From: a phage
Reading direction: 5' to 3' (one strand)
Sequence record: PZ357121.2
DNA: 64,000 nucleotides
Below the pieces are notes generated by a model, which saw nothing but the letters and a program-made list of their open reading frames with translations, was not told the DNA's origin and ran no database searches. Below are positions 5,345-63,138 of this stretch, piece by piece (the stretch's first letter is position 1; each line of letters begins with the position of its first letter). The translations under genes were made by a program, and so were the position numbers.

Positions 5345-5387
5345 GCTAATTTCCTCAATTGATTAATGTTTTGTAATCCATGAGAGC

Positions 5388-5416
5388 ATTATACTCTGCT
5401 CTCAAGAGTTTGTACA
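5388..5416 (-). promoter_or_regulatory. early promoter cassette (-35 TGTACA, 17 nt, -10 TATAAT) with 7-bp inverted repeat around -10
   Basis: Minus strand TGTACA-N17-TATAAT; GAGAGCA/TGCTCTC inverted repeat brackets the -10; near-identical copy at 49972-50006. Confidence 0.55.
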
Positions 5417-5419
5417 ATT

Positions 5420-5620
5420 TTATTCGGTTATATCAGAACGTTCAAAAAGCTCTTCAACAGTTAAACATTCGGTGTCATCCTCAATAAAGAATCGGGTCCA
5501 ACACGTTGGGGCGATGCAGTTATGAGTTTGTCCGGCTATAGAAGCTACACGAATAAGCTGCTGACCATTATTCAGGACAAATTTTTCACCAATTTCAACA
5601 TCTTTAAAAAGCTTAGCCAT
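5420..5620 (-). CDS. hypothetical protein (66 aa)
   Basis: ATG ORF with GAGGAA SD; promoter upstream. Confidence 0.55.
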   Translation of the reverse strand: MAKLFKDVEIGEKFVLNNGQQLIRVASIAGQTHNCIAPTCWTRFFIEDDTECLTVEELFERSDITE

Positions 5621-5648
5621 TTTGTATTCCTCGTGTTTTGATAGGACT

Positions 5649-5678
5649 ACTATACCATAATCCTACCTTGATGTAAAC
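5649..5678 (-). promoter_or_regulatory. T4-type early promoter (-35 GTTTAC, 18 nt, extended -10 TGgTATAGT)
   Basis: Minus strand motif then CCTATCAAAAC leader. Confidence 0.6.
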
Positions 5679-6134: not shown

Positions 6135-6160
6135 GATGTTATCCTCTTTTAGATAGGACT

Positions 6161-6190
6161 ACTATATCATAGTCCTACTTAGTTGTAAAC
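6161..6190 (-). promoter_or_regulatory. T4-type early promoter (-35 GTTTAC, 18 nt, -10 TATAGT)
   Basis: Minus strand motif; TAGGACT/AGTCCTA inverted repeat around -10. Confidence 0.55.
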
Positions 6191-14827: not shown

Positions 14828-15352
14828 TCATTTTAGCAAAATAAAATCAACTTGTTCTGCCAATGAACGTCTAAACATTAATTGACAACTTCCGAGGATG
14901 AAATCAGGTGCTTCATAGACCGCGATGTAGTATCCTTTAGCTTTCAAAAGTTCAACATCCACCTGGTCATCAAACCATGCATAAACCGCGTCAACACTTT
15001 CAAATCCAAAATAGAACCCTTGGGCCCAATCTTCACTCAATTCAAATGTGTGCTCAATTCTATAGTATCTTAAGATATTTTGTTCAAGGAGTTTGTCTTC
15101 ATTTACTGTAGGACGATTAGGGACATTATAGTTGTCACCGTGATGGTAGAAGTTACCTGAGATTATTCCATGTTTATCAAGGAACTCCCATGTTTCTTCA
15201 GAGTTGTCGGTGCCCGACCAACCGTATGGCGAACGAGGTTCTTTATTCCAAGAGGTTTCCCAAATTCTGACGGCTTTACCATCTTCGATAGCAATTCCTG
15301 GTAATGATTCACGTTGAGTACAAAAACTACGTTCTACGCGGTAAACTAACAT
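14828..15352 (-). CDS. hypothetical protein (174 aa)
   Basis: ATG at 15352 (MLVYRVE...) with GAGGAG SD; track N-terminal extension overlaps promoter. Confidence 0.55.
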   Translation of the reverse strand: MLVYRVERSFCTQRESLPGIAIEDGKAVRIWETSWNKEPRSPYGWSGTDNSEETWEFLDKHGIISGNFYHHGDNYNVPNRPTVNEDKLLEQNILRYYRIEHTFELSEDWAQGFYFGFESVDAVYAWFDDQVDVELLKAKGYYIAVYEAPDFILGSCQLMFRRSLAEQVDFILLK

Positions 15353-15378
15353 ATTATTCTCCTCTGGTTGATATGGGT

Positions 15379-15407
15379 ATAATATCAAAACCAGAGGAGA
15401 AGTAAAC
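15379..15407 (-). promoter_or_regulatory. T4-type early promoter (-35 GTTTAC, 17 nt, -10 TATTAT) with 9-bp inverted repeat
   Basis: CCTCTGGTT/AACCAGAGG inverted repeat brackets the -10; downstream arm contains the SD. Confidence 0.55.
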
Positions 15408-25721: not shown

Positions 25722-25750
25722 TTTAACTCCTTAGTTGATTTGATAGGACT

Positions 25751-25780
25751 ACTATACTATAGTCCATTTATAATGTAAAC
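25751..25780 (-). promoter_or_regulatory. T4-type early promoter (-35 GTTTAC, 18 nt, -10 TATAGT)
   Basis: Minus strand motif then AGTCCTATCAAATCAAC leader. Confidence 0.55.
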
Positions 25781-26929: not shown

Positions 26930-27243
26930 ATTTCCTCGCAAAATGCCCATTCAGCGTGATAAACTGTAGCACCTTTAGTATTATTCATTTGAACTACATC
27001 TACCGGAGAAATTACTCGATAGAGACGTGGTTCACCTCCATAAGAGCGTGCTGCTCGTCCTGCATAAATCTTTGCTAAACCGATATCTTCGGTAAAGAAT
27101 ACACGATCCAAGTTTTTCTTACGTCCTGTTTCAGACAGAACTCCTGTTTCTTCAGGAGGACAAAGCATGTTTTCGATGTTAGCTGAACTACTTGAACCGT
27201 GATAAAAAATCTTAAATTCTGCTTTACAATCGATGGTTTTCAT
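26926..27243 (-). CDS. hypothetical protein (105 aa)
   Basis: ATG ORF with GGAG SD. Confidence 0.55.
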   Translation of the reverse strand: MKTIDCKAEFKIFYHGSSSSANIENMLCPPEETGVLSETGRKKNLDRVFFTEDIGLAKIYAGRAARSYGGEPRLYRVISPVDVVQMNNTKGATVYHAEWAFCEEI

Positions 27244-27269
27244 TTTGTTCTCCAGTAGTTGATAGGTCT

Positions 27270-27298
27270 ATAATAACACAACTACTGGAGAAGTAAAC
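27270..27298 (-). promoter_or_regulatory. T4-type early promoter (-35 GTTTAC, 17 nt, -10 TATTAT) inside a 12-bp perfect inverted repeat
   Basis: CTCCAGTAGTTG / CAACTACTGGAG brackets the -10; downstream arm includes the GGAG SD. Confidence 0.6.
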
Positions 27299-27673
27299 TT
27301 AAAAACGTAATTTAGATATATCTGCGTTGATTTCGTTTTGGTTTGCGTCGTATGCAATTAAACGAACCGCTTTAGATGGGTCATTCAATGCATAGAAATG
27401 ATGGAACATTGCTCGAACGATATCACCATTTACGAGTTCTACCTGGACAGGAGAACCTTTTTCGAGTTGGAAATGTTCATAAGCTTTGATGGTTCGCAGA
27501 TAATCAAGTTTTTGATTTCCGGCTCCAACAATTTGTACGATACGTTTGCCCATGTTTTCCATACGAGATACAATAGTTTTAGGAGCAAGAATAACGTAGG
27601 TTGCCAGCGGAGAAACTACTTCAACAGTTGTGTTTTCGGTGATTGCAGTAAAAATTGCTTGAGACATATTCAT
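27299..27673 (-). CDS. hypothetical protein (124 aa)
   Basis: ATG ORF. Confidence 0.6.
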   Translation of the reverse strand: MNMSQAIFTAITENTTVEVVSPLATYVILAPKTIVSRMENMGKRIVQIVGAGNQKLDYLRTIKAYEHFQLEKGSPVQVELVNGDIVRAMFHHFYALNDPSKAVRLIAYDANQNEINADISKLRF

Positions 27674-27702
27674 AATGTTTTCCTCTTGGTTTGTGTAAGT
27701 AC

Positions 27703-27732
27703 ATCATATCATGCCTAGAGGAAGATGTAAAC
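27703..27732 (-). promoter_or_regulatory. T4-type early promoter (-35 GTTTAC, 18 nt, -10 TATGAT)
   Basis: Minus strand motif immediately after the gene 41 terminator hairpin. Confidence 0.5.
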
Positions 27733-49387: not shown

Positions 49388-49611
49388 TCTAGTTCCTTTG
49401 CTGCTTCAAGAGCAACATCCAGCGAATCAAATTGGTCTACGAAATCAATATTCAACGCATCATCAACCGTAGCATATAACCACCATTGTTTGAATTCGTA
49501 TTCTAGAATAAATCCAGGACCTTCAATCTGAGGAAGACCTAGGCTATTTGTACCAACTTCGTAACCAGCTAGACGCAGGTCATTAATCAAAGTTTCTGTT
49601 AATACGCTCAT
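49384..49611 (-). CDS. hypothetical protein (75 aa)
   Basis: ATG ORF with ATGA-type overlap. Confidence 0.55.
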   Translation of the reverse strand: MSVLTETLINDLRLAGYEVGTNSLGLPQIEGPGFILEYEFKQWWLYATVDDALNIDFVDQFDSLDVALEAAKELE

Positions 49612-49940
49612 TTTGCCGCCTTAACAATTTTCAGGTCAACGAATTTTTTCTTACGTTGATTTTTCATACGACGGATAGTCTTTTCAGAGATTTCATGTTT
49701 CTGATAAGCTTTAGATTCAACACCAAATGCAGCAACGTCAAATTCAGAAAGAATATATTGTACTAGAATTTCACGAATAGAATTACGTCCAATTTTCTGG
49801 TCGTGTTTTTGCATGATTTCATAAAGACGGAATTCCCACGCATCAAGAACTTGAGGAGTAACAATATTGCCAGATTCCAGAAGAGCAACAACTTTATCGA
49901 AAGCGAAAGAATTAACTACGTTTTTGATTTTAGTAGACAT
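49608..49940 (-). CDS. hypothetical protein (110 aa)
   Basis: ATG at 49940 with GAGGAA SD; track N-terminal extension overlaps promoter. Confidence 0.55.
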   Translation of the reverse strand: MSTKIKNVVNSFAFDKVVALLESGNIVTPQVLDAWEFRLYEIMQKHDQKIGRNSIREILVQYILSEFDVAAFGVESKAYQKHEISEKTIRRMKNQRKKKFVDLKIVKAAK

Positions 49941-49977
49941 ATTATTTTCCTCGGTTATTTTATTATCCAACGAGAGA

Positions 49978-50006
49978 ATTATACTCATCTCTCAAGAGTT
50001 TGTATA
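49978..50006 (-). promoter_or_regulatory. early promoter cassette (-35 TATACA, 17 nt, -10 TATAAT) with 6-bp inverted repeat
   Basis: About 35-bp near-identical copy of the ndd promoter at 5382-5416. Confidence 0.55.
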
Positions 50007-50246
50007 CTATTTTTTAAGCATGAAAAGTAAGTAATTTGTATCACGTGGAGTAATATCAACACCCATATCAAAGATGCCTTTATAGATTGGGTATTTGTTT
50101 TCGGTTGTATCGAAGCTGAAACTATTTCCATCACAACTAACAGTAATAGCATCTGTTAAAATGTCATACTCAATCCTAACAATTGAATCCCCAATTTTAA
50201 CGTCGAGGTGTTTTTTGAATTTGATAAAATCTAATTCTTGGGCCAT
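50007..50246 (-). CDS. hypothetical protein (79 aa)
   Basis: ATG ORF. Confidence 0.55.
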   Translation of the reverse strand: MAQELDFIKFKKHLDVKIGDSIVRIEYDILTDAITVSCDGNSFSFDTTENKYPIYKGIFDMGVDITPRDTNYLLFMLKK

Positions 50247-50277
50247 GATATTTTCCTCATTTTAAGACGATAGGAAG

Positions 50278-50306
50278 ATAATAACATGTCTTCCTATCGT
50301 TGTACA
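50278..50306 (-). promoter_or_regulatory. T4-type early promoter (-35 TGTACA, 17 nt, -10 TATTAT) inside 10-bp inverted repeat
   Basis: GATAGGAAGA / TCTTCCTATC brackets the -10. Confidence 0.55.
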
Positions 50307-61465: not shown

Positions 61466-61494
61466 ATTATACTCCAACCATCCTTGGTTGTACA
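61466..61494 (-). promoter_or_regulatory. early promoter (-35 TGTACA, 17 nt, -10 TATAAT) with CCAAGGATGG spacer motif
   Basis: Minus strand TGTACAACCAAGGATGGTTGGAGTATAAT. Confidence 0.55.
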
Positions 61495-62552: not shown

Positions 62553-63080
62553 TTATGCGTGAACCGTCTTTAAACGTTCTTCAAATTTCCGAAGAGTACT
62601 AATACGTTCTGCTTTCTGTTTTGTATAGTTTGCAATACGTTCTGAAGTGAGAGCGTATCGTTCGTTTACTGTTTCTTTCATGAAGTCAGGGATTTCACGA
62701 GAAGCTTTAATTTCATCAAACTTATCGAGTACTGCCTGGTCTTCAGCGATTAAATTTTCGTACATCTCGATATCTTTCTTGATAAACTCGATATCTTCCT
62801 GGGTTACTTTGGATAAACGAGATGCTTTATCCTTTTTGTACTGCTCGTTAGTTTCACGAGACCAGAATAATGTACGTTTTTTGTTAGTGTTTTTGTAGAC
62901 TTCCACAATTCCAACTGAATCGATGATAGCAATCCAATTCCAGCGAGATTTGAAAATCTGACCTCCGTCCACGGTAATCTCGTTACCATAAGCAACGTCA
63001 TTAAAGAACTTGCTTTGTGCTTCAGATTTAAATTTACCGTCGTTATAATTTACCAGGTTGAAAATATCTTTAGCGTTCAT
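62553..63080 (-). CDS. hypothetical protein (175 aa)
   Basis: ATG ORF; leader identical to that of 26926-27243. Confidence 0.6.
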   Translation of the reverse strand: MNAKDIFNLVNYNDGKFKSEAQSKFFNDVAYGNEITVDGGQIFKSRWNWIAIIDSVGIVEVYKNTNKKRTLFWSRETNEQYKKDKASRLSKVTQEDIEFIKKDIEMYENLIAEDQAVLDKFDEIKASREIPDFMKETVNERYALTSERIANYTKQKAERISTLRKFEERLKTVHA

Positions 63081-63101
63081 GTTTTACCTCCAGTAGTTGA
63101 T

Positions 63102-63130
63102 AGGTCTATAATAACATAACCATAGACCTT
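63102..63130 (-). promoter_or_regulatory. T4-type early promoter (-35 GTTTAC, 17 nt, -10 TATTAT)
   Basis: Minus strand motif then AGACCTATCAACTACTGGAG leader. Confidence 0.6.
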
Positions 63131-63138
63131 GTAAACAA

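Follow-up and report, generated by a model that had tools for sequence, protein, structure and literature searches.

The window, that is, the whole 64-kb stretch of phage DNA analysed here, is on sequence identity assigned to a T4-like coliphage of the Mosigvirus type, because the region around the second of the two elements described below is 99.5% identical to Escherichia phage vB_EcoM_G2469 (MK327934; Mosigvirus, Tevenvirinae). A first-pass annotation had reported a near-identical 35-bp promoter cassette upstream of ndd (5382-5416, copy 1) and upstream of a 55.x gene (49972-50006, copy 2). Both positions are correct, and the two 35-mers are equal at 31 of 35 positions. In the ORF listing of the window, the genes around both 35-mers all lie on the minus strand, and therefore the 35-mer is to be read as its reverse complement, TGTACAAACTCTTGAGAGCAGAGTATAATGCTCTC. 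The degenerate 35-mer pattern had exactly two matches in the window, still two when up to three mismatches were allowed, and none in 100 dinucleotide-preserving shuffles. The likeness of the two copies extends about 13 nt further downstream, with the sequence (A/G)T(T)GGAT(T/A)A(C/T)AAA.

The gene after copy 1 was confirmed as ndd by Pfam (Phage_T4_Ndd, E=4.9e-89), and the ORF upstream of it is an ndd.1 orthologue with 45% identity to T4 ndd.1. The gene after copy 2 is the 55.2 orthologue, with 75% identity to T4 gp55.2. A mechanical ORF for this gene spans 49608..49988, and its ATG at 49988 falls within the copy 2 cassette; the likely start is the ATG at 49940, behind the Shine-Dalgarno sequence GAGGAAAA. 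Upstream of copy 2 lies a 79-aa ORF (50007-50246, minus) that has no detectable similarity to T4 gp55.3, which also has 79 aa and occupies the same position next to 55.2. From its sequence, the 79-aa ORF looks like a gene replacement abutting the cassette. The genes flanking the two copies belong to unrelated families on both sides, and therefore the shared unit is the promoter region and not a gene. The features of both copies, and of the further copies discussed below, are collected in Table 1.

Table 1. Features of the cassette copies (window positions unless another sequence is named)
Feature	Position	Strand	Remarks
Copy 1, -35 hexamer TGTACA	5411..5416	minus	3 nt past the TAA stop (5420-5422) of the ndd.1-like ORF
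Copy 1, hairpin 5' arm TGAGAGCA, core GAGAGC (5398-5403)	5397..5404	minus	within the promoter spacer; fold (8-bp stem) and covariation
Copy 1, -10 hexamer TATAAT	5388..5393	minus	5/6 bases in the hairpin loop; the last T (5388) closes the stem
Copy 1, hairpin 3' arm TGCTCTCA, core GCTCTC (5382-5387, -6 to -1)	5381..5388	minus	fold and covariation
Copy 1, predicted transcription start A	5381	minus	from the usual 7-nt distance to the -10 hexamer
Copy 1, RegB/S1-like site GGATTACAAAA, +3 to +13	5369..5379	minus	10/11 to GGAKRAYARAA (consensus: PMC1702504, PMC3014915)
ndd with Shine-Dalgarno GAGGAAA	4898..5356	minus	Shine-Dalgarno 5350-5356; coding sequence from ATG 5344 to 4898; ORF and Pfam
Copy 2, -35 hexamer TATACA	50001..50006	minus	abuts the TAG stop (50007-50009) of the 79-aa ORF
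Copy 2, hairpin 5' arm GAGAGA	49988..49993	minus	fold and covariation
Copy 2, -10 hexamer TATAAT	49978..49983	minus	in the hairpin loop
Copy 2, hairpin 3' arm TCTCTC (-6 to -1)	49972..49977	minus	fold and covariation
Copy 2, predicted transcription start G	49971	minus	inferred
Copy 2, RegB/S1-like site GGATAATAAAA	49958..49968	minus	0 mismatches to the consensus, GGAU form
55.2 orthologue (DUF7570) with Shine-Dalgarno GAGGAAAA	49608..49952	minus	Shine-Dalgarno 49945-49952; ATG 49940 to 49608
Third copy	MK327934 72835-72869		directly after frd.3
Fourth copy	MK327934 137903-137937		near pnk
L053 cassette	match starts 1,872 bases into the reverse-complemented locus	minus	

On the gene strand, copy 1 reads TAA-aat-TGTACA-aactcttgagagcagag-TATAAT-gctctc-A-tGGATTACAAAAcattaatcaattGAGGAAAttagcATG and copy 2 reads TAG-TATACA-aactcttgagagatgag-TATAAT-tctctc-G-ttGGATAATAAAAtaaccGAGGAAAAtaatATG. 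Both were called on this strand as sigma-70-type promoters, scoring 10/12 with a 17-nt spacer between TGTACA or TATACA and TATAAT. Each cassette begins 0-3 nt past the upstream stop codon and 31-37 nt ahead of an ATG led by a Shine-Dalgarno sequence, and an A-rich stretch (aaaaaatag, gaataaaat) precedes the promoter. The window copies also share 31/35 positions with the sequence before T4 motB, where a promoter signal was detected by primer extension (PMC1702504), and the T4 motB site carries the annotation 'predicted early promoter' in phage fPS-90. The score, the spacer and this homology uphold the description of the 35-mers as promoter cassettes. By their homology to the T4 motB promoter, the copies would be active as early promoters right after infection and without phage protein synthesis. 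T4 has no promoter at either the ndd or the 55.2 locus.

The features of T4 early promoters include an extended -10 TGn and an A/T-rich UP-like region (PMC2988021). The TGn is absent in both copies, in which AGAG or TGAG precedes the -10 hexamer. The cassette lacks both the TGn and the CTATCAACTAC start region that were found in the T4 early promoters examined, and therefore it constitutes a distinct promoter sub-class. Among 276 pairs of early promoters in the window, copies 1 and 2 are tied as the most alike (34/41, against a mean of 19/41), and two other promoter sub-families are almost as alike as they are. One of these (-35 at 61494, 60501 and 16398, minus) has the common spacer ccaaggatgg(t/a)tggag before TATAAT, and the other (-35 at 6189, 5677 and 25779, minus) has taggactatgaTATAGTagtcctatc in common; identity inside each is 30-34/41, against the same mean. 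The motB-like gene of the window phage (15412-15831, minus; Pfam motB, E=1.5e-20) is seemingly without the cassette, unlike T4 motB, as the pattern scan gave no further copy in the window. The promoter predicted at some distance upstream of it (16398) is a member of the first of these two sub-families.

The inverted repeat that had been noted at the flanks of the 35-mer is real, with GAGAGC..GCTCTC in copy 1 and GAGAGA..TCTCTC in copy 2, and one difference between the copies within it is compensatory. It flanks the -10 hexamer: the spacer contains the 5' arm, and positions -6 to -1, up to the predicted start, are taken up by the 3' arm. Variants of the cassette were collected by scanning IMG/VR for the start of the spacer and the -10 region alone, with no constraint on the stem positions, and the scan gave 34 loci with 32 distinct variants; the invariance of the spacer and -10 positions among them is partly by construction, as these were fixed in the pattern. 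The arm pairs of the variants include GAGAGC/GCTCTC, GAGAGA/TCTCTC, GGGAGC/GCTCC(C/T), GGGACC/GGTCC(C/T) and GAGGAC/GTCCTC, and further GGGGTC/GACCCC, GGGGCC/GGTCCC, GGGATC/GGTCCT and GGGAGC/GTTCCC. In an ungapped alignment of 27 distinct variants, 98.1% of the cells of the 8-pair helix were paired. Column shuffles gave 85.4 ± 1.2%, and none of the 500 came up to the value observed; when the 3' partner was displaced by 1-3 columns, 34-55% of the cells were paired. Four of the eight pairs change on both sides, and one of them occurs with six pair types. As a control, 35 of 36 relaxed-pattern matches without the exact family spacer paired at only 0-4 of six arm positions; the 36th is L053, which is a variant family member.

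On the sense strand, the same alignment contains 22 G·U cells and not a single A·C. Since the G·U cells are mismatches on the opposite strand, the selected structure is on the gene strand, and it is most simply an RNA helix. These data bear directly on the possibility that the inverted repeat is a palindromic DNA operator, bound by a dimeric phage or host regulator that co-controls the promoters. The palindrome straddles the -10 hexamer, which is a typical repressor position, and the shut-off of T4 early promoters is not understood (PMC2988021, PMC3014915). However, the half-sites vary within the genome (GAGAGC, GAGAGA, GGGAGC) and between clades (GGGACC, GGGGTC, GAGGAC), and yet they stay complementary, while all 22 non-Watson-Crick cells in the standard-pair set are sense-strand G·T. 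A sequence-specific protein would conserve the sequence and not the complementarity. The operator was therefore rejected as very improbable on the arm covariation and the G·U asymmetry. The earlier proposal of a shared regulator-binding site thus does not hold for the inverted repeat, with its covarying arms and its G·T cells tolerated on the sense strand only, but a shared trans-acting factor is plausible at the RNA level, at a RegB/S1-like GGAU plus A-rich site that lies outside the 35-mer.

Because the 3' arm ends at -1, the hairpin can be present only in RNA that reads through from upstream and is absent from promoter-initiated RNA. The stem was predicted by ViennaRNA in every copy, with 8 bp in copy 1, 6 bp in copy 2 and 13 bp in T4 motB. 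The window hairpins are weak, with z-scores of -0.65 and -1.16 for the 100-nt folds, neither of them significant; at this scale, significance was reached by the T4 and pnk-region copies only. In Rfam, no family matched anywhere in the window at the gathering score, and around copy 2 there was no match even at E<=1. Sequestration of the Shine-Dalgarno sequence by the 3' arm was not seen, as the arm lies at -6 to -1 and the Shine-Dalgarno sequence about 23-25 nt further downstream. An intrinsic terminator was also considered and was rejected for want of a U-tract: the stem is not followed by a U-run (3' flanks AUGGAUUAC and GUUGGAUAA), and neither site appeared in the terminator scan.

A good number of further predicted early promoters of the window also lie inside hairpins, all on the minus strand (50262-50306, 27230-27297, 15340-15406, 27670-27731, 6140-6189, 5630-5677, 25730-25779 and 63080-63135); their 5' arm falls in the spacer, and their 3' arm past the -10 hexamer. 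The promoters at 27297, 15406 and 27731 do bury a Shine-Dalgarno sequence. The mean duplex energy of a promoter spacer with its own downstream region was -7.3 kcal/mol, against -5.8 kcal/mol with the downstream regions of other promoters (permutation p=0.0004).

In all variants, GGA(T/G) stands two or three bases past the stem and is followed by an A-rich run. The recognition sequence of RegB with S1 is GG*AGRAYARAA (Durand et al. 2006, PMC1702504), and the model RegB substrate is the motB RNA, with the minimal 3' boundary GGAGUAUAAAA (PMC1702504). The T4 cassette contains GGAGUAUAAAA exactly, and this sequence occurs once in a 4.5-kb T4 stretch around motB. Copy 2 reads GGAUAAUAAAA, matching GGAKRAYARAA at 11/11 positions. 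Copy 1 reads GGAUUACAAAA and matches at 10/11, with a C at position 7, which is not among the cleaved T4 RNAs (PMC1702504). Most GGAU sites of T4 resist RegB (2/30 tested were cut), and GGAU is cut only with a strict A-rich consensus after it, as in T4 55.2, T4 motB.2 and one RB69 site (PMC1702504). The regB gene is annotated in MK327934, outside the span covered by the window. A GGAU RegB site of RB69 was reportedly described by Piesiniene et al. in 2004.

Across the window, the RegB consensus at up to one mismatch was not enriched (22 found, 23.8 expected). Therefore, the case for RegB rests on the position, the conservation and the homology to T4 motB, and not on motif statistics. On these grounds the cassette leaders probably carry a RegB site, and RegB may cut the GGAU copies in the window phage. 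RegB leaves a 5'-OH end, which is phosphorylated by T4 polynucleotide kinase, and the message is then open to RNase G/E (PMC3014915). Because of this route from 5'-OH end to degradation, a RegB site at +3 would constitute a built-in off-switch for early mRNA.

A different nuclease might act at the same place: GGAUUA(C/U) or GGAUAAU beside the hairpin could be a host RNase E site, of the RAUUW type by a stem-loop, rather than a RegB site. GAUUA is present in copy 1 and in the D2 and 55.2 copies of another clade, and work on T4 gene 32 processing is said to point to a preference of RNase E for AU-rich single strands beside stems. Copies 2 and 3, however, read GAUAA, and the GGAG-type members, including the proven RegB site of T4 motB, align at the same position, so that we regard RNase E as an improbable reader of this site.

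Secondary structure protects against RegB (PMC3014915). In the fold of the T4 motB copy, ACUCU from the conserved spacer is paired with GGAGU, and the helix is extended over the RegB site; the same extension is predicted in most other GGAG-type copies. In read-through RNA, the predicted probability of GGAG being unpaired was 0.02-0.07 in six GGAG-type copies and 0.18-0.31 in three others (L007, L016, L019), whereas in the cassette's own transcript it was 0.5-0.9, except for 0.34 in L016. For GGAU in the window copies, it was 0.26-0.41 in read-through RNA and 0.07-0.18 in the own transcript, and thus the predicted accessibility of GGAU in these two copies did not differ in the expected direction. 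Burial of the site by the extended stem is clear for most GGAG-type members, but not for either window copy, and over the GGAU-type copies as a group the folding gave an ambiguous picture.

A role at the RNA level has independent support from the ndd leader, which was compared at 35 IMG/VR loci (L121-L155) gathered by a four-sequence alignment query, as a single Ndd protein reached only close relatives. In most clades, a hairpin is followed by GGA(G/U) and an A-rich run; among the 35 loci, a few of the most distant (e.g., L148/L149 and L152/L153) showed no clear hairpin. A promoter lies inside the hairpin in four clades including Mosigvirus, and the stem is different in each. The T4-like ndd leader (L040 2542-2601, ndd.1-ndd intergenic) has GGCCG..CGGCC and then uuGGAGUAGAAAA, without a promoter; the sequence after this hairpin was also recorded as uuGGAGUAGAAAAUAA. 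Two other clades have GGGCC-uucg-GGCCC or GGGAGC-cua-GCUCCC and then GAGGAUAAA, also without a promoter. Therefore, the hairpin-plus-site module persists without the promoter, which would fit a boundary or 3'-protective element on read-through RNA.

Four cassette copies are present in MK327934, namely both window copies and two more. In a blastn search of a phage collection, the 56-nt copy 1 element was found at an identity of at least 99% in 144 records, often at three or four places per genome, and related versions were found in Tequatrovirus, Dhakavirus and others. T4 has one copy, before motB, with the sequence TTTACAAACTCTTGGGACCAGAGTATAATGGTCCC. In one clade or another, a cassette of this type is found ahead of ndd, of motB, of 55.2 and of a 160-aa gene, and therefore the family is old. 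Of the promoter duplication proposed at first sight, the repeat itself stands, but a two-copy event does not, as there are four copies in the lineage and several clades carry the cassette with different stems.

The distribution also speaks to a neutral account, by which a promoter was recently duplicated and the inverted repeat and the downstream likeness have no function of their own. Such an event could explain why the window copies are 31/35 identical between flanking genes of unrelated families. It is already disfavoured, and we consider it hardly credible: the cassette type stands before ndd in three clades besides Mosigvirus and before 55.2 in another, with stems that have diverged but are still paired, the shuffle and slide controls fall far short of the observed pairing, and the ndd leader keeps the hairpin and GGA(G/U) in most clades examined, in several of them without a promoter.

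Two copies from one genome can resemble each other more closely than do copies of a single locus from different clades. Over the 24 columns left free in the search, identity reaches 0.83-0.92 between paralogues of a genome, and between clades it is 0.33-0.58 for ndd, motB and 55.2. For instance, the motB and ndd cassettes of one genome have an identity of 0.92, and the window 55.2 copy has 0.83 with the frd.3-side copy but 0.33 with the 55.2 copy of another clade; the motB copies of T4 and of another clade have 0.46. The overall means differ little (0.68 against 0.60 in this small, informal comparison), and the D2 locus shows the opposite, being more alike between clades than within genomes. 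At the 55.2 locus of L053 (IMGVR_UViG_3300029310_000132), a 5' arm GGGAGC is combined with a 3' arm GCTCTC and a spacer GACTCTT, and this cassette looks like a mosaic of other paralogues. The pattern suggests that the copies have been homogenised by gene conversion or recombination between cassettes, and recombination of this kind was proposed for the promoter/stem-loop cassettes called PeSLs (PMC2839356, PMC4122927).

By a strict PeSL account, the stem-loop would be a terminator or attenuator of incoming transcription, and the cassette mainly a homology patch for the shuffling of early genes. The cassettes are intergenic, repeated and placed among small non-essential ORFs, and PeSLs are known in T4 and PST with the promoter consensus TTTACW-N17-TAYWAT (PMC4122927). 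The gene upstream of copy 2, unrelated to T4 55.3 next to a well-conserved 55.2, the lack of a promoter at both loci in T4, the chimeric L053 cassette and the likeness of paralogues within genomes are all in line with shuffling. As a terminator, on the other hand, the stem has neither the U-tract nor a hit in the scan; it encloses the -10 hexamer, and the 0-3 nt before the -35 hexamer leave no room for another stem. Recombination alone explains neither the arm covariation nor the strand bias of the G·U pairs. The strict PeSL account is therefore a doubtful one, although it is compatible with the explanation that we prefer and the two are not mutually exclusive.

In that preferred explanation, the two 35-mers are probably two instances of a composite control element, about 50 bp long, that stands before several T-even early genes; this estimate is for the explanation as a whole, comprising the early promoter, the read-through hairpin, the RegB/S1-like site and the homogenised copies. 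In the first part of the cassette, the A-rich stretch, T(G/A/T)TACA, 17 nt and TATAAT would be used by the unmodified host RNA polymerase immediately after infection. The second part would be a hairpin of 6-8 bp, with the -10 hexamer held in its loop, formed only in read-through RNA from the upstream gene. The third part, from +3, would be GGA(U/G) and an A-rich run fitting the 11-nt RegB/S1 site; a RegB cut here, followed by the action of T4 polynucleotide kinase on the 5'-OH end and decay by RNase G/E, would bring about a fast shut-off of the early mRNA. We infer that the hairpin acts together with the RegB site on read-through RNA, where the extended stem would bury the site in the GGAG-type copies, and after a RegB cut the upstream cistron would keep a protective 3' hairpin. 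The near-identity of the distant copies would result from common descent, shared constraint and gene conversion. Of all this, the layout of the sequence, the number of copies, the covarying arms and the homology to the T4 motB element were observed, whereas promoter activity in the window phage, cutting of the GGAU copies by RegB and the function of the hairpin are proposed.

A more specific possibility is that the hairpin enclosing the -10 hexamer discriminates transcripts by origin, so that read-through and promoter-initiated RNAs receive different fates, namely in RegB cleavage through shielding of the site and in protection of the 3' end of the upstream cistron. The 5' arm lies upstream of the start site, and for this reason only read-through RNA can fold the hairpin. 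We hold this proposal tentatively, as one that may well prove wrong. If many early promoters of the window phage are so built (permutation p=0.0004), RNA structure embedded in promoters would be a general principle by which T-even early transcription units are organised, and more than a peculiarity of gene e and soc.

The cassette is a largely familiar kind of element; in the papers examined, no description was found of a hairpin with covarying arms that surrounds the -10 box and lies directly next to a RegB-type site. The literature search also gave no usable genome-wide map of T4 start sites or 3' ends. The closest known element is the T4 motB promoter with the RegB site in its leader (PMC1702504), of which the window copies are paralogues. 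They have in common the -35/17/-10 layout, the spacer AAACTCTTG, the hairpin around the -10 box, and GGA(G/U) followed by an A-rich run from +3. The T4 stem, GGGACC/GGTCCC, is extended to 13 bp with the GGAG buried in read-through RNA, and the window stems differ from it. The T4 site is a GGAG and a strong RegB substrate, whereas the window copies have GGAU, and the T4 element precedes motB whereas the window copies precede ndd or 55.2. Compared with the optimum of the RegB/S1 targets, the copy 2 site differs only by U at position 4, while copy 1 has the 10/11 form given above; like the known targets, the window sites are intergenic and on a presumed early transcript.

PeSLs (Arbiol 2010, PMC2839356; Comeau 2014, PMC4122927) are, like the cassette, repeated, intergenic and A/T-rich, with a sigma-70-like promoter, a stem-loop and a Shine-Dalgarno sequence with an ATG, and they too occur among small variable early genes. 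PeSLs lie beside gene replacements and show signs of exchange between copies, and the cassette may do so as well, with the chimeric L053 as the one case of a break inside a copy. In these sources, however, the stem-loop lies just upstream of the promoter and is an effective terminator, whereas the cassette stem wraps around the -10 hexamer, extends no further than -1 and is followed by no U-tract. The window cassette includes a RegB-type site, of which no mention was found in the passages on PeSLs that were consulted. The repeated intergenic cassette of the PeSLs is thus present here, with four copies in the lineage, but the upstream terminator stem-loop is not.

The T4 gene e promoter-in-hairpin (PMC3014915) resembles the cassette in that the 5' arm lies upstream of an internal start, and read-through and initiated RNAs fold differently. 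In cases of the gene e type, however, the promoter is a late or middle one and the 3' arm sequesters the ribosome-binding site, whereas the cassette has an early promoter and its 3' arm stops at -1. Control similar to that of gene e is known for soc, 49 and I-TevI. The cassette offers a recognisable signature of early transcription units for the annotation of Mosigvirus and related genomes, and a small, well-defined element for experiments on promoter-embedded RNA hairpins. It links strong early promoters, the repeated promoter/stem-loop cassettes of gene shuffling and the RegB-triggered inactivation of early mRNA, which are usually treated apart, and suggests that these three can form a single module, which moves and is homogenised as a whole.
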